Virus record (IMG/VR): IMGVR_UViG_2690316131_000018
From: a virus
Taxonomy: Duplodnaviria; Heunggongvirae; Uroviricota; Caudoviricetes
Length of the DNA: 29,394 nucleotides
Direction: 5' to 3' (one strand)
Shown here: piece after piece, positions 13,086 to 23,727 of the stretch
Numbering within the stretch: the first letter of the stretch is position 1
Layout of the letters: every line of letters starts with the position of its first letter
Made by a program: the position numbers and the translations under genes
Notes under the pieces: model-generated
Databases searched by the model: none
Told to the model about the DNA's origin: nothing
What the model saw: the letters and a program-made list of their open reading frames with translations, nothing else

Positions 13086-13292
13086 TTACTGACCAAGCAG
13101 CGTTTTACCGCTGGTATTAGCGGTTGATGTGTCGCCCTGAGAACCAGTAAGCAGCGTAGAACTACGACCAGCAGCAGCGCGACGGCGACGTGTTTCTTCG
13201 TCGCGGGCATCAACAACGGCGGCATCCTGCTCCTGTGGTGCTGCCTGAACTTCTGGTGTTGCAGGCACTGATGGTGAGCTACCCATGCACAT
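13086..13292 (-). CDS. hypothetical small low-complexity protein upstream of portal
   Basis: 68-aa ORF with ATG start. Its ribosome-binding/start region (TCAATGACTCCG) nearly duplicates that of the portal gene. Coding status uncertain. Confidence 0.3.
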   Translation of the reverse strand: MCMGSSPSVPATPEVQAAPQEQDAAVVDARDEETRRRRAAAGRSSTLLTGSQGDTSTANTSGKTLLGQ

Positions 13293-13382
13293 ATCAATGA
13301 CTCCGTACGCAATTAAATTATTACCAATTTAACCACATATGATTTATTTATCGTAGGTAGTTGACATTTACCGCACGAATTA

Positions 13383-13397
13383 TTACCTTCAAGGTAA
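13383..13397. promoter_or_regulatory. operator-like palindrome TTACCTTCAAGGTAA, with a TTGACA hexamer at 13361-13366
   Basis: Perfect TTACC-N5-GGTAA in the intergenic region between the portal operon and the tRNA island. A degenerate copy (TTACCAATTTAACCA, 13321-13335) lies ~62 bp away. Confidence 0.45.
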
Positions 13398-13720
13398 CCA
13401 AAGAGCTCATTCCGGTTACTAACCTGACTGGCTTGTCGTTAAATTGAACAGGTGGAGTGAGCTTTTATTTTGAGCAGTACGGCGTATGGCACATGCGACG
13501 ATAGCGGTCTGGATACGTTTAAGGGGGCACCCTCCCTTGCTCGGGCAAACGAACCAGGTAGCCGGAATGTGCAAGTCGAGCGGTTTTATTCCGCGCACGG
13601 GGATACACCATCCCGGCGATTCGGTGTGACGCCTCGGAAGAGACGAGGGTACAACGATGAGAGCATTTATGGAGCCGCGACAAAGTGTGGTGCCTTAACA
13701 GGCTAAGTGCTCTCAGCGTT

Positions 13721-13797
13721 GTGGCATTAGCTCAGTCGGACAGAGCAACCGCCTTCTAAGCGGTTGGTCGCAGGTTCGAATCCTGCATGCCACGCCA
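13721..13797 (+). tRNA. tRNA-Arg (anticodon UCU), phage-encoded
   Basis: 77-nt cloverleaf folded by hand: acceptor stem GTGGCAT/ATGCCAC, D-stem GCTC/GAGC, anticodon stem ACCGC/GCGGT with loop CTTCTAA, T-arm GCAGG-TTCGAAT-CCTGC, discriminator G and encoded CCA. D- and T-arms resemble host argU; acceptor and anticodon stems differ. Confidence 0.85.
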
Positions 13798-13840
13798 GAA
13801 TCACGCCTAAGGACCGTGATGCCAGAAGTTCCAGGTGCTT

Positions 13841-13884
13841 GGCGGTGATGGTTTCCCTTGAAGGGCTATCACCGCCCTTTTTAC
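13841..13884 (+). terminator. rho-independent terminator after the tRNA
   Basis: 9-bp stem GGCGGTGAT / ATCACCGCC with a structured loop, followed by CTTTTT. Confidence 0.6.
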
Positions 13885-13960
13885 AGCAGGACGCCATTGC
13901 GATGACTTCATGCTGTAAACCCGTACAGCCACGGAAGGCATAACTCATTGCTTCCAGTTC

Positions 13961-13985
13961 GCCCGGTTCGCCGGGCATTTTTTTG
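13961..13985 (+). terminator. second rho-independent terminator-like hairpin
   Basis: GCCCGG-TTCG-CCGGGC followed by ATTTTTTT. Confidence 0.5.
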
Positions 13986-14019
13986 CCTGATGACCGCAAA
14001 CTACCTTAAAGGTATAATC

Positions 14020-14838
14020 ATGAAAAAATTCAAGGTAATTAGCATGTTTGAATCGTTCAAAGAGCTGTTTTTATCTACTGCCAATACTGCCGTGAATCGA
14101 GCCAAAAACCCTGTGCTTGGTGCTTTTGTTATGTCCTGGTGCGCCTTCAACTGGAAATCAATTCTTTATCTATTTTTTAGCAAATCAAACATAATAGATA
14201 AAATTTCATATATCTCAGATAACAGCACATGGAAAACTGTTATGTTTTATCCATGCTTATCTGTAATTGCTATCTGCTGCCTATTACCATGGGTAAACAA
14301 TATCATTAACGTATGGCAAGCAAAGCCTCTTGATAATAATGACTCAATCGAAAATCACCTGAAGGCAAGAAAAATCCAGCGTGAAACAAGACTGCAGAGG
14401 TTATTGGCTAAAAAAGATGTTACATACGACAAAGTTAAGACTGGCGCGGAAAAAGACATCCAAGAGATGAAAGAAGAGATTATTCGATCAAAGAATAGTA
14501 TGGGGGAATTGACTGCCGAGTTGAAAGCTAAAGATGACGAATTGAGATCCGCCAGTGCTCAGTTAGCAGCTCTAAATCATTCATTAAAAGAGATATCGGA
14601 AACTCTTGGAAGAATGAATGAGGCATATAAGACCCTCCAAAATGATTTCGACGAATACAAACTCAAATACCCTGAAAAATCTCAAATAAAAAGCCTTGCA
14701 CTTGGCAACGGCCAAACAATTAGCAACTTTTTGGAGCAACACAACTTATCCGGATTAAAATCTGGTAAGCCAAACGTTTTTAATAACTTTGGTGTTCTAT
14801 CTGGATTATCAGGTTTCGAGGATAAAAATAAAGACTAA
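14020..14838 (+). CDS. AT-rich cargo gene: predicted membrane protein with long C-terminal coiled coil, unknown function
   Basis: The track ORF starts at 13948, but the probable start is the ATG at ~14020 (MKKFKVISMF), just after a TATAAT. Two hydrophobic segments near the N-terminus, then a charged heptad-like region. AT-rich versus the rest of the window. Convergent with the terminase gene, stops overlapping. Confidence 0.6.
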   Translation: MKKFKVISMFESFKELFLSTANTAVNRAKNPVLGAFVMSWCAFNWKSILYLFFSKSNIIDKISYISDNSTWKTVMFYPCLSVIAICCLLPWVNNIINVWQAKPLDNNDSIENHLKARKIQRETRLQRLLAKKDVTYDKVKTGAEKDIQEMKEEIIRSKNSMGELTAELKAKDDELRSASAQLAALNHSLKEISETLGRMNEAYKTLQNDFDEYKLKYPEKSQIKSLALGNGQTISNFLEQHNLSGLKSGKPNVFNNFGVLSGLSGFEDKNKD

Positions 14839-16310
14839 GCATATGGATCGTACTCGGTAAGCGCCTTGCCTTGCTGGTTCTGCTGCCCGGGAAGTCGCAG
14901 GCGCTTTGACACCGGGAAAGCAAACGTCAGCAGTAGCGCATCGCCTTTACCAGGAGAACGCCCAAGACGCTCTTTGATATCTTCCTTCGGTTCGATAACG
15001 ATTTTACCGTCCACACGAACTTTGTACTCTGCCGCCGACAGGTCGTCTGCAGTTTCCTGGTCATCCAGCATGCCGCCCAGCCTCAGCCATGTCTTACATG
15101 AGTTGAACATCTCCCCACGCTTGTTAAGCATCTGCGGGTCAGTGGACGCACCGCCGAACGGAACAAGTTGCCATGTACGCCCCCAGCCATCACCGATTGA
15201 CTTCAAACCGGTTCCGTAACCGAAGTCGATGAACACCGCGTCAGCCTGATACTGGTCTTCAAAGTCAGCGATACGCTTCGCCATAATCAGATCGTCAGTG
15301 GTCTTGTTGCCAGTCCACAGCACCTTACTGTGCAGCCCCTGCCGCAGGTATATCGCAGCGTCATCAACACCGGAGTATGCCGGGTCAACGCCGATTATCA
15401 CCGGAGCATGTACCACCTGCGCAGCGGTTACCACCCGTTTCATTGCCTCATCAGTAAGACCGGTAGGGATAAACTGCAATTCAGATGCATCAGGGAATAT
15501 GCCGCGCACACGGATTTTAACGAAGTCGCTGTCTTCCCCGTAGTCATCAACCCATTTCTGCAACTGCTATTTGTTAGTGCCTTCCACCGTCCGGCTGTCA
15601 ATCTGCGCAGTTTTCCAGCGGTGTTTGTATTTGCGGAAACATTCGCGAAAACGCCCGGTGTTACGTGTAGGGTTTCCGAACGCCACCCAGATAATCTCAG
15701 TGTCTTCGTCCGTAAGAGCACCCTCAGCAACTTCCCACACCAGATCCGCAATGTTCGACGCTTCATCAAATACCACGATGATGCGTTTGCGCTCGTTGTG
15801 TAGTCCGGCGAATGCCTCAGTGTTGTGCTCAGACCAGGGTATTGCGTCAGCCCGCCACCGCTTGTCGTGCCCAGGGTCATTGCTGTACATCGCGGTAGCG
15901 GTACAGGTAAACCAGTCTTTCGTGATGGCAAGGTTCGACCACTTGATAATTTCCGGCCAGGTCTTCGTTCGTAGCTGGTTGTCGGTGTTGGCGGTCACCA
16001 CGACCTTACAATCCTCGCAAGTGGACATGCCCCAGTTGATCAGCATTGAGATGAATGCGGATTTACCAATACCGTGACCAGAAGCGCGTGCCAGCATAAG
16101 CGGCTGATAGCGCGTCTCTGGATTCTGCAGGTGATCACGTATCTCTCGGAACGCATCGGCCTGCCACTGACGTGGACCGGTAGCATGTGCCAGTTCAGTC
16201 CCCTCTTCCCCCCAAGGGAACGCATAGAGGGCATAGCCAAGCGGATCGTGAGTGAACCCTGCAATATCTTCGATTAACTGCTCTTCAGGAGATAACGCTG
16301 CATCTGTCAC
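14835..16310 (-). pseudogene. terminase large subunit interrupted by an in-frame TAG
   Basis: ORF 15567..16310 has Walker A (GHGIGKS) and Walker B (IIVVFDEAS) motifs; ORF 14835..15563 has a nuclease-like Asp-rich region. Both are in one frame, separated only by TAG at 15567-15569 plus one sense codon. The second ORF starts at TTG, not ATG. Confidence 0.7.
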
Positions 16311-17017
16311 TGATTACCATCCTGACGTTCTTTGAGTCGCTTCCTGGCTGCTGCTATGCGATCAGCAATTGTCACATTCACATTAACATCCAGGCGTTCT
16401 TTGAATGCGTTGACGTCGACGTGCTTACCGATGAGCTCGAGGTTTTTCACCTTGTCGGGCCATTTCACCTTCTTCAGGATATGCTCGACATCCTCAACAG
16501 AGAGATCCGCCTCGCCATTCTCTTTTTGCAGGGAAGCCTGGGTTGTCTTGATGGTAGCGATATCCATAGCACTGAGAGAGGTACGCCAGACCTTCGGCCA
16601 TTCAGTGATCGGCTTCATCCCGCCGTCATCGTTCAGTATATCCAGCACGTCCATCTGGTCTATTTCCACCAGGCGCATGAGAACGTAATCAGCACTGACG
16701 CGCATTCGTTTGTTGCGCTCCTCCATCAACTCGGCAATCCGTTTTTGAATGCGTTCATCGCGCATCATGACACTGGCTTTAACTGCCGCTGTATTTGGAG
16801 AGAATCCTGCGTTAATCGCTGCCTGAGTCTGGTTTTCAGGCGTTTTGATGTATGACTGGCAATAAGCCTCCTGCATTGCTGTTAGTGGCTTAAATTGCGT
16901 TGATTTGCGTTTATAGGTTTTAGGTTCAGCAGGCATCATAACCACCCTGGTAATTGTTACCGTCGTGGTAATAGTAACATGCAAAATAAAGCCGCCATAG
17001 TTGGCGGCAGTATTCAA
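16307..17017 (-). CDS. terminase small subunit
   Basis: Motif AYCQSYIKTPENQTQAAINAGFS is typical of phage small terminases. Probable start is the ATG at ~16939 (MMPAEPK); the longer track N-terminus would run through a terminator and operator. Confidence 0.65.
   Translation of the reverse strand: MNTAANYGGFILHVTITTTVTITRVVMMPAEPKTYKRKSTQFKPLTAMQEAYCQSYIKTPENQTQAAINAGFSPNTAAVKASVMMRDERIQKRIAELMEERNKRMRVSADYVLMRLVEIDQMDVLDILNDDGGMKPITEWPKVWRTSLSAMDIATIKTTQASLQKENGEADLSVEDVEHILKKVKWPDKVKNLELIGKHVDVNAFKERLDVNVNVTIADRIAAARKRLKERQDGNQ
16957..16971. promoter_or_regulatory. operator-like palindrome TTACCGTCGTGGTAA just upstream of the terminase genes
   Basis: Perfect TTACC-N5-GGTAA between the terminator (16981-17008) and the small terminase start (~16939). 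Confidence 0.45.
16981..17008 (-). terminator. rho-independent terminator between the nin-like block and the terminase genes
   Basis: GCCGCC-N6-GGCGGC hairpin followed on the - strand by TTTATTTTG. Confidence 0.5.
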
Positions 17018-20545: not shown

Positions 20546-20622
20546 TTACCTCTGAGGTAATTAAAAACCACATAAGACACGAAATCAATAGATTTTAGAA
20601 TATTTTATTACCTAACAGGTAA
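20546..20622 (-). promoter_or_regulatory. repressible promoter for the nin-like block, flanked by two operator palindromes
   Basis: On the - strand: operator TTACCTGTTAGGTAA (20608-20622), then -35 TTGATT (20583-20588), 17-nt spacer, -10 TTTAAT (20560-20565), then operator TTACCTCAGAGGTAA (20546-20560) abutting the -10 and containing the ribosome-binding site for the ATG at 20542. Confidence 0.5.
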
Positions 20623-22553: not shown

Positions 22554-22568
22554 TTACCTTTGAGGTAC
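22554..22568. promoter_or_regulatory. operator-like palindrome TTACCTTTGAGGTAC
   Basis: Imperfect TTACC-N5-GGTAA between the Cro-like gene's terminator hairpin and the next gene. Confidence 0.4.
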
Positions 22569-22583
22569 GAATAGATATGAAAA

Positions 22584-22601
22584 GACCGCCGGATGGCGGT
22601 C
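22584..22601 (-). terminator. possible terminator after the Cro-like gene
   Basis: GACCGCC-GGAT-GGCGGTC hairpin followed on the - strand by TTT. Weak T-tract. Confidence 0.35.
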
Positions 22602-22623
22602 TACAGAGGGTTGTGGCTGGATA

Positions 22624-22854
22624 TCATGAGTAGAAGAAGTATGCCAGTTCTGCTTTTGAGCGCAGCCATTGTCTTGTTTTACAGGCTTTAAAAAGCCCAT
22701 TCATCAATACCTTACCTGGGATTTTGCGCTTACCTGTTAAGTGAGTCTGGATATAGTGACTCGTCGTTCCGGCTTCCTGTGCGAAGGCTTCACGCTCATC
22801 CGGAGTAAGTGCAAGCCAGTGCTTTTTGAAATCGAAATGTCCGTTATCGCTCAT
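22624..22854 (-). CDS. Cro/CII-like HTH regulator, first gene of the rightward-equivalent operon
   Basis: 76-aa ORF with ATG start, divergent from the repressor gene. HTH-like segment EAGTTSHYIQTHLTGKRKIP. Confidence 0.55.
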   Translation of the reverse strand: MSDNGHFDFKKHWLALTPDEREAFAQEAGTTSHYIQTHLTGKRKIPGKVLMNGLFKACKTRQWLRSKAELAYFFYS

Positions 22855-22890
22855 AGCTATTGCCTGATATTTATTTCAGATAATAAATAT

Positions 22891-22953
22891 TCACCCATAA
22901 GGTAACAAAAATCAAGGATAGTTACCTGTGGGGTGCATTTACCTGTTGGGTAA
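22891..22953. promoter_or_regulatory. tripartite operator region between the Cro-like and repressor genes
   Basis: Three TTACC-N5-GGTAA-type sites: TCACCCATAAGGTAA (22891-22905), TTACCTGTGGGGTGC (22922-22936) and the perfect TTACCTGTTGGGTAA (22939-22953). Confidence 0.6.
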
Positions 22954-23650: not shown

Positions 23651-23727
23651 TTACCTAAAGGGTAATTTTTTTAACTCATATCTATTGACACCAAACCAAA
23701 TACGCATAATCATTACCTCAACGGTAA
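23651..23727 (+). promoter_or_regulatory. pL-like early-left promoter with two flanking operator palindromes
   Basis: TTACCTAAAGGGTAA (23651-23665), TTGACA (23685-23690), CATAAT-like -10, then TTACCTCAACGGTAA (23713-23727). Operator centres are ~62 bp apart, as at the nin promoter. Confidence 0.5.

Follow-up and report, generated by a model that had tools for sequence, protein, structure and literature searches.

Among the structured RNAs carried by phages, two groups offer the closest points of comparison for the locus considered here: the GOLLD and ROOL RNAs, often residing in prophages and near transfer RNA (tRNA) genes (PMC5737381), and the put RNAs of phage HK022, cis-acting antiterminators of ~70 nucleotides (nt) made of two stem-loops (PMC9378689). 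The locus lies in a 29,394-nt stretch of DNA of a tailed phage of the class Caudoviricetes (IMG/VR record IMGVR_UViG_2690316131_000018; hereafter, the window) and harbors a tRNA-Arg(UCU) gene at positions 13721–13797. A preceding sequence-only reading described this gene and overlooked the conserved RNA unit to which it belongs as the 3'-terminal part; upstream, the unit comprises an RNA of ~240 nt (13480–13720) on the same strand. The account favored below, considered fairly probable as a whole, is that a functional tRNA-Arg(UCU) is carried by a Uetakevirus prophage at guaA as the last gene of a conserved unit and provides a benefit in AGA decoding. With somewhat better than balanced confidence, the RNA is proposed to represent a new and widespread family of phage non-coding RNAs with two pseudoknots, which occurs in Uetakeviruses, lambdoid/Stx2 phages and P1-type phage-plasmids, is expressed from repressor-controlled early promoters, is fused to a tRNA in some lineages, and binds a molecular machine of the host or of the phage.

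The 430 nt separating gp3 and the tRNA gene are non-coding. The region 13479–13720 is common to very different phages at ~80% identity, and the alignments of its copies display invariant blocks with variable hairpins in between. The structure deduced from these alignments, all on the + strand, includes the helix H1 (13480–84/13496–500), the pseudoknot PK1 (13489–94/13567–72), the helices P1d (13504–05/13561–62) and P1e (13508–12/13554–58), two variable hairpins, the helix P3 (13600–03/13611–14), the pseudoknot PK2 (13606–09/13623–26), the helix P4 (13632–36/13644–48), and, with additional support from folding, the closing helix P5 (13651–13667/13706–13722).

The main support for this structure comes from covariation. 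The 162 copies collected were reduced to 127 unique cores and further to 56 clusters at 93% identity; RNAalifold revealed compensatory pairs in the alignment, and the model consisting of H1, P1d/e, P3, P4, PK1, and PK2 was assessed on 57 representatives. In this set, 96.0% of the cells were paired, vs. 28–43% when the partners were slid by 1–3 columns; 14 pairs showed changes on both sides, and 125 cells were compensatory, vs. 30.6 ± 7.6 in the shuffled controls, none of which (0/500) reached 125. Covariation was exemplified by the terminal pair of H1 (GC in 29 and AU in 25 sequences) and by pairs in P1e (CG 41, UA 16), PK2 (CG 50, AU 6), and P4 (CG 40, GC 12), and a fully nested alternative model scored slightly below the pseudoknotted one. 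As to P5, a perfect 10-bp helix was present in 105 of the 122 unique copies (14/122 in the shuffled control) in at least eight different helix sequences, and its fold had a z-score of −4.1. The frequent G-U pairs place the RNA on the + strand, i.e., the strand of the tRNA. The evidence for the RNA is thus covariation and not folding energy, since the single-sequence fold of its + strand was uninformative (z = −0.68). Overall, the stretch 13480–13720 encodes a strongly covarying structured RNA that contains two pseudoknots, and the combination of invariant loops with a compact fold suggests a binding partner among the machines of the host or the phage (e.g., RNA polymerase, an RNase, a defence protein) and not the action of a simple antisense RNA.

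A protein-coding interpretation of the same region was considered and rejected: the 78-aa open reading frame (ORF) at 13470–13706 has no Pfam or PHROG match, and the compensatory pairs, the G-U pairs, and the indels of many lengths speak for an RNA product. The search of Rfam 15 at E ≤ 10 over 13250–14050 returned only the tRNA plus weak chance matches, and no match for the RNA was obtained at gathering and permissive thresholds in a lambdoid locus and in a variant locus. Likewise, a full-text literature search with the conserved RNA blocks, written as DNA and as RNA, gave no match among the papers searched; keyword searches on prophage structured RNAs near cI or tRNAs and on P1 transcriptomes brought up nothing relevant, and the RNA is described neither in Weinberg et al. 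2017 nor in a 2026 preprint on the mining of non-coding elements. Apparently, the RNA has not been described so far.

The distribution of the RNA is broad. It was found in the lambdoid phages cdtI, mEp460, 2H10, and Ayreon, in Stx2c- and some Stx2a-converting phages, and in P1, P7, D6, SJ46, and RCS47. It is present in 1839 of the 5426 complete E. coli genomes (~34%), where no feature is annotated at its position save for an occasional hypothetical protein, and on 590 plasmids, mostly non-mobilizable replicons of ~80–100 kb, which is the size of P1-type phage-plasmids. The invariant 19-mer of the RNA, GGTAGCCGGAATGTGCAAG, was retrieved from ~20 species of Enterobacteriaceae and Erwiniaceae and from more than 120 viral contigs; a match in an Oscillospiraceae metagenome-assembled genome comprised the 19-mer only and was discarded as a chance match. 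Hypothetical ORFs have been drawn on the opposite strand across the RNA in cdtI (orf40; locus L003, 3282–3737) and mEp460 (gp37; locus L007, 2443–2811), and the original record of phiV10, in which the tRNA was missed, has the ORF p04 (locus L002, 4327–4578) running across the tRNA on the other strand; all three ORFs are probably annotation artefacts.

The genomic settings of the RNA hint at the mode of its expression. Among the 121 copies with an upstream ORF on the same strand, 68 follow genes of cI-type repressors (helix-turn-helix plus Peptidase_S24). In phage cdtI, the cI stop codon is followed by a terminator, the promoter-like site TTGACA-16-CATAAT (11/12 consensus positions), and the RNA, an arrangement found at the position of P_L. 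In P1, it resides within the C1-controlled ban operon, 15 nt past the tRNA-Ile gene (trnI) and on the same strand. All three settings, those in the Uetakeviruses, cdtI, and P1, agree with an early, repressor-controlled expression. The first sizeable downstream ORF shares the strand of the RNA in 34 of 48 lineages; the lambdoid downstream genes, checked for an N-like antiterminator, are all function-unassigned. In at least four lineages, the RNA stands alone, facing a terminase gene. A pure leader role would not fit every context, since such lone copies face the terminase and, in the window, a tRNA and two terminators follow the RNA. Structural variation of the family was recorded as well: in SPN1S (locus L013, ~1806–1916) and Stx2a_1447 (locus L011, ~2187–2270), the P5 loop carries an insertion of ~60–100 nt with T-arm-like sequences (CTGGTTCAATTCCAG), possibly the remnant of a tRNA that decayed within the RNA; ARAGORN called no tRNA in this insertion.

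The RNA and the tRNA are tightly joined. The base of P5 is formed by ACAACG (13651–56) pairing with CGUUGU (13717–22), so this helix overlaps bases 1–2 of the tRNA and abuts the acceptor helix with no linker; the base −1 of the tRNA is U. With P5 ending on the first two bases of the tRNA, one cleavage by RNase P at 13720/13721 is predicted to mature the 5' end of the tRNA and to release the RNA at the same time. Every tRNA adjacent to the RNA shares its strand and keeps a nearly constant distance from it: in ~30 copies from Uetakeviruses, tRNA-Arg(UCU) follows directly on the 3' side, and in ~21 P1-type copies, a tRNA(CAU), annotated as trnI, ends 15 nt 5' of the RNA. Viewed from the side of the tRNA, 114 copies of tRNA-Arg in viral contigs include 98 with the exact 19-mer upstream, most often at 164 nt, and seven more in which the RNA was detected by profile search; the remaining nine have a different 5' domain and the same junction (ACAAC-hairpin-GTTGTGG-tRNA). 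A second type of upstream RNA region preceding the same tRNA was observed at L173 (7537–7986), L197, L206, L208, and five other IMG/VR loci. Regions of this type have no 19-mer core but reuse hairpins with a GGAAGAG loop, like that of P4, along with the same P5–tRNA junction, which implies the existence of a modular set of RNA domains; Rfam gave no match for L173, the sole locus of this type that was scanned.

Such an arrangement raises the possibility that the tRNA is mainly a processing partner of the RNA, recruiting RNase P to generate a precise RNA 3' end, and that decoding is a side benefit. tRNAs are known to punctuate other polycistronic transcripts in a similar way, members of the RNA family adjoin tRNAs, always on one strand and with fixed junctions, in two groups of phages unrelated to each other, and the junction, with its overlap of P5 and the first tRNA bases, is retained even when the 5' RNA domain is a different one. 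Still, this explanation is unlikely: ~111 of the 162 RNA copies have no tRNA nearby, PAT1 and the lambdoid phages carry a full-length RNA without one, and the identity elements and the cloverleaf of the tRNA are kept under selection, which would be needless for a mere processing signal. As shown by the full RNA without a tRNA in PAT1 and by the ~111 tRNA-free copies, it is the RNA that is more general of the two, with the tRNA being an add-on in some lineages.

The call of the tRNA gene itself is solid. ARAGORN predicted a single tRNA in the window, tRNA-Arg with the anticodon TCT at 13721–13797 (+), and the same interval matched Rfam RF00005 with 73.3 bits (E = 1.8e-14; the gathering score is 29), in agreement with the sequence-only reading. 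In the cloverleaf, with stems of 7/4/5/5 bp and a conserved T-loop, all 21 stem pairs are standard; the acceptor stem is built of seven Watson–Crick pairs (GUGGCAU/AUGCCAC), the D-stem is GCUC/GAGC, the anticodon stem ACCGC/GCGGU encloses the loop CUUCUAA, the T-arm reads GCAGG-UUCGAAU-CCUGC, and the gene encodes the CCA end, the discriminator G73, and A20, C35, and U36. Its alignment with argU of E. coli K-12 showed 63 identical positions out of 77 (82%), so the possibility that it simply duplicates the host gene, which would require identity, does not hold: 14 positions differ, all of them accounted for by three base pairs of the acceptor stem, two of the anticodon stem, two nucleotides of the D-loop, and two of the variable loop. 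Common to both are the T-arm, the D-stem, the 7-nt anticodon loop, G73, A20, and the encoded CCA. The description of the gene as phage-encoded, argU-like in its D- and T-arms, and distinct in the acceptor and anticodon stems is thus upheld. Similar tRNAs occur in 1678 phage records, tRNA-Arg(UCU)-like genes being among the commonest phage tRNAs; the tRNA-Arg of Synechococcus phage S-RIM2 (KX349237, KX349280) exhibits 92% identity over positions 5–69, vs. only 82% overall for argU.

Comparison of 126 natural copies of the tRNA (viral contigs and phage records; 19 variants) argues for its functionality. Full cloverleaf pairing is retained in 124 of them, one lineage features the compensatory change C30G/G42C, and the acceptor changes yield G-U pairs. 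Since 124 of the 126 copies keep every cloverleaf pair, including a compensatory double change, the gene appears to be under selection and not a chance match. The elements A20, C35, U36, and G73 are present in the copies, some of which have A73 instead. In E. coli, the identity elements recognized by arginyl-tRNA synthetase are A20, C35, U36, and G/A73. According to these established identity rules and the conservation of the argU anticodon loop, the tRNA should be charged with arginine and should read AGA and, weakly, AGG, the two codons proposed in the sequence-only reading.

The unit is preceded by a conserved control region (13286–13397). An upstream block of ~110 nt is near-invariant among the Uetakeviruses of E. 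coli, Salmonella, Enterobacter, and Klebsiella and contains a −35-like hexamer, TTGACA (13361–13366), and the palindrome TTACCTTCAAGGTAA (13383–13397). The window contains 10 sites with the motif TTACC-N5-GGTAA, whereas 0.47 would be expected, and these gather around repressor/cro and ahead of the gene for the small terminase; the equivalent sites are annotated as repressor operators in the record of epsilon15. The palindrome can therefore be assigned, by its sequence, to the operator set of the phage repressor. The nine further operator motifs, located within 16939–16971, 20546–20622, 22554–22953, and 23651–23727, are placed on either side of the repressor/cro genes and in front of both the small terminase gene and an early gene; direct action of the repressor at several operons is suggested by this placement. 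A candidate rightward promoter, TTGACA-17-TACCTT, overlaps the operator.

Downstream of the tRNA, the two tandem terminators that had been noted earlier were recovered by the terminator scan as intrinsic-terminator-like hairpins on the + strand. T1 (13841–13884), also supported by folding, consists of a hairpin with a 14-bp stem (13841–13876) followed by CTTTTT, and one base of its stem differs from phiV10 and strain 118UI. T2 (13961–13984) comprises a hairpin with a GCCCGG/CCGGGC stem (13961–13976) and the T7 run ATTTTTTT and marks the end of the conserved unit. The spacer between them (13885–13960, +) is conserved, with one mismatch to phiV10, and structured: the fold of the spacer and T2 (13885–13984) has a z-score of −2.5. 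In Rfam, it has weak matches only, to RyhB-like and other small-RNA-like families (E ~1.4–3); the spacer and T2 could constitute a small terminator-ended RNA resulting from read-through of T1.

Taken together, these elements would form a conserved accessory unit composed of the repressor operator with the candidate promoter, the 240-nt RNA, the tRNA, and the two intrinsic terminators, and pointing away from the virion genes. T1 and T2 most likely keep the unit from antisense reading into the convergent terminase gene. That phage tRNAs can act as replacements against tRNA-targeting defences is a well-established concept, and the tRNA might accordingly be a counter-defence spare for a host tRNA-Arg(UCU) cleaved or depleted by a host or rival nuclease. 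The differences from argU in the acceptor and anticodon stems, the repressor operator, by which the unit would be switched on in lytic growth, and the abundance of tRNA-Arg(UCU)-like genes in phages go along with this scenario. Nonetheless, it is quite improbable: the anticodon loop is identical to that of argU, so a loop-specific nuclease should cut both tRNAs equally, no tRNA-targeting system was identified, and close relatives manage without the tRNA.

The carrier of the unit is well defined. The region matches phiV10, TL-2011b, the O157 typing phages 9 and 10, phiv142-3, ZX5, and others at 97–99%, and the window can be recognized as a prophage of the phiV10/epsilon15 type (Uetakevirus, a podophage) integrating at guaA. 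In Uetakeviruses, the tRNA locus lies between the gp3/portal and terminase genes in the orientation opposite to these, and the counterparts in E. coli phages occupy the same place (from gp3 to the large terminase gene) with 97–100% identity. The tRNA-Arg was found in 508 of the 5426 complete E. coli genomes, usually in one copy; in all of the matches listed, it is annotated as tRNA-Arg (PGAP). It is also annotated in the O157 typing phages 9 and 10, phiv142-3, SPC32H/N, SPN9TCW, and Klebsiella phage ST512-KPC3phi13.3, from which it differs in nothing essential. As a feature, then, the tRNA-Arg is already known and ordinary; the upstream RNA is unannotated in every Uetakevirus record fetched.

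The place of integration bears on one more explanation of the tRNA, namely, that it is a duplicated piece of a host attachment site at argU, which is a known site of prophage attachment (e.g., of DLP12 in K-12) and whose 3' end is resembled by attP of Salmonella phage epsilon34. In phage ZX5 (vB_EcoP_ZX5), for which one tRNA has been reported, attB is the 3' end of guaA (PMC9782041), and in the map of strain 118UI, the prophage adjoins guaA with the integrase at the guaA end. The window ends at the integrase gene, which places the att sites outside it; the guaA att core from the ZX5 paper had no match in the window. Integration at guaA, together with the full length of the tRNA, its 82% identity to argU, and its location well inside the prophage, with the portal gene on one side and the terminase genes on the other, refutes the duplicate, the chance of which is negligible. 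By position and sequence, the tRNA-Arg can be considered prophage-internal and unrelated to the attachment site.

Two peculiarities of the terminase genes were recorded along the way. The large terminase gene of the window (14835–16310) is split by an in-frame amber codon at 15567–15569 on the − strand (CAG to TAG, Gln248 to stop). CAG is kept at this site in phiV10, typing phage 9, and strain 118UI, and none of the 5426 E. coli genomes gave a 100% match to window positions 15500–15640; the amber is either a private inactivating mutation, rendering the prophage packaging-defective, or a sequencing error. In PAT1, the large terminase gene (locus L167, 23824–26274) is annotated as 2451 nt long, vs. 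1476 nt in the relatives, and may contain an inserted element such as an intein or result from a gene fusion.

The most likely benefit of the tRNA would be an additional capacity for AGA decoding, since AGA is used several times more in the phage genes than in the host genes. Its frequency per 1000 codons amounts to 5.6 in the virion/packaging genes, 8.4 in the early/regulatory genes, and 15.2 in the cargo gene downstream of the unit. The comparison with host genes, advised earlier as a check, points in the expected direction: against 5.6–8.4 per 1000 in the prophage, the flanking genes guaA, guaB, and xseA have no AGA in 1471 codons, a small host sample of three genes. Genome-wide, AGA makes up ~2 per 1000 codons in E. 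coli. The demand for AGA/AGG is represented mainly by the tailspike (18 codons), the replication protein (11 of its 14 arginine codons), and the PerC-like activator. A comparison of five Uetakevirus-type genomes treated with one uniform ORF caller gave 6.7 AGA per 1000 codons for the window, 7.2 for phiV10, and 5.5 for SPN1S, all of which bear the tRNA.

Several points speak against the account as a whole. On the side of demand, the capsid, the portal, and the neighboring virion genes, of which the capsid and portal belong to the highest-expressed class, are almost free of AGA/AGG; the tRNA-less relatives PAT1 and epsilon15 have 6.9 and 4.2 AGA per 1000 codons, and no correlation of AGA use with tRNA carriage is seen over the five genomes; ATA and GGA are enriched too, without a matching tRNA. 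The RNA–tRNA module is dispensable, as epsilon15 lacks the tRNA and all but the first ~65 nt of the RNA. On the side of expression, TTGACA-17-TACCTT fell below the threshold of the promoter scan and was not called, and the leftward virion operon might be the one controlled by the operator. Finally, with its terminase amber, this prophage copy may make no phage any more. Carriage of the tRNA does not track the demand for AGA, and this type of phage manages without it. Codon compensation is nevertheless a plausible function of the tRNA and the most likely one, with the chances for and against it being about equal.

The AT-rich gene beside the tRNA calls for separate treatment, since the sequence-only reading linked the two by co-acquisition or by compensation for the codons of this gene. 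It belongs to a swappable cargo cassette, or moron (13985–14838, +), with a promoter-like site of its own, ATGACC-17-TATAAT (13990–14018), matching 10 of the 12 consensus positions. The cargo ORF (14020–14838, +) has 36% GC, falls into phrog_4780, and encodes two N-terminal hydrophobic segments and a coiled coil; PADLOC and Pfam returned only non-specific coiled-coil matches for its product. Its true start is probably ATG 14044 rather than 14020, because the −10 hexamer ends at 14018 and the homolog and PHROG alignments begin at residue 7–9. Klebsiella phages BUCT711 and KO-TP1, like Escherichia phage EC.W1-9, carry diverged homologs in this slot; hydrophobic segments, a coiled coil, and diverged homologs in the same slot are a pattern expected of exclusion or defence morons.

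The premises of the proposed link were borne out: the gene is AT-rich, its AGA density is the highest in the window, and five of its eight arginine codons are AGA/AGG. The recurrence of cargo-family homologs in one slot might also be thought to favor a joint acquisition of the tRNA and the gene to compensate for its codons. The association, however, is not constant, since the cargo is found in 56 of the 5426 complete E. coli genomes, vs. 508 for the tRNA-Arg. In strain 118UI, a 100%-identical tRNA is followed by a Gp49-family gene in place of the cargo, and the same is true of phiV10 (97–98% identity of the tRNA). The three-way alignment of the window, phiV10, and strain 118UI is near-identical across the tRNA, T1, the spacer, and T2 and diverges completely from 13985 on, i.e., the homology breakpoint (13984/13985) comes directly after the T-run of T2. 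With the different neighbor, the breakpoint behind two terminators, the separate promoter of the cargo, the 56 vs. 508 genomes, and only five codons to serve, co-acquisition is contradicted and the combined explanation is very improbable. Compensation aimed at the cargo alone is weakly supported: the richness of the gene in AGA holds, but other genes equal or exceed its AGA/AGG content, and PAT1 has an equal AGA use with no tRNA. The cargo is thus one of several morons using the slot beside the tRNA unit and lies outside that unit.

The tRNA alone adds little: other temperate phages have tRNAs for rare codons, this one had been annotated before, and its supposed tie to the cargo is wrong. The value of the locus resides in the adjacent RNA, which has gone unannotated in ~34% of the complete E. 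coli genomes as well as in Stx2-converting phages and the classic P1, where it occupies places characteristic of leaders of early operons and of tRNA operons. Should it prove truly undescribed, a new phage RNA would be available for easy testing in the bacterial host studied best, and its recognition would correct the spurious-looking overlapping ORFs phiV10 p04, cdtI orf40, and mEp460 gp37.

The phage tRNA shares the UCU anticodon with argU; unlike argU in K-12, it is not an attachment site. The argO and argN genes of Stx phages and the tRNA-Asn, -Thr, and -Ile genes of P1 (ban operon) are likewise accessory rare-codon tRNAs of temperate enterobacterial phages, argO matching the tRNA-Arg at ~86% over the core, but they have other genome positions and other tRNA identities. 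The trnI gene of P1 adjoins a member of the RNA family, both being encoded on one strand of an operon under repressor control, with the difference that in P1 the tRNA precedes the RNA, whereas here it follows.

As for the RNA, it recalls the put RNAs in position only: the lambdoid copies are located just past a strong promoter-like site after the cI terminator, where P_L and putL lie. In one concrete version of the proposal, the RNA would represent a structurally new class of put-like processive antiterminators. It differs from put in its length of ~240 nt, the pseudoknots, and the presence of one copy per phage instead of two, and the Uetakevirus copy is followed by a tRNA and terminators facing a convergent gene. 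Homology to put was rejected, the nhmmer profile of 56 RNA sequences giving a best E of 2.3 against the immunity region (nun-cI-cro) of HK022. GOLLD and ROOL RNAs are ~600–800 nt long, and their Rfam models had no match in the window. They come from Firmicutes or from rumen and lake samples, whereas the RNA described here belongs to phages of Enterobacteriaceae, and there is no sequence relationship between them. Even so, as phage-borne structured non-coding RNAs, often adjacent to tRNAs and probably co-transcribed with them (PMC5737381), they provide the closest published analogy to the context of the RNA.

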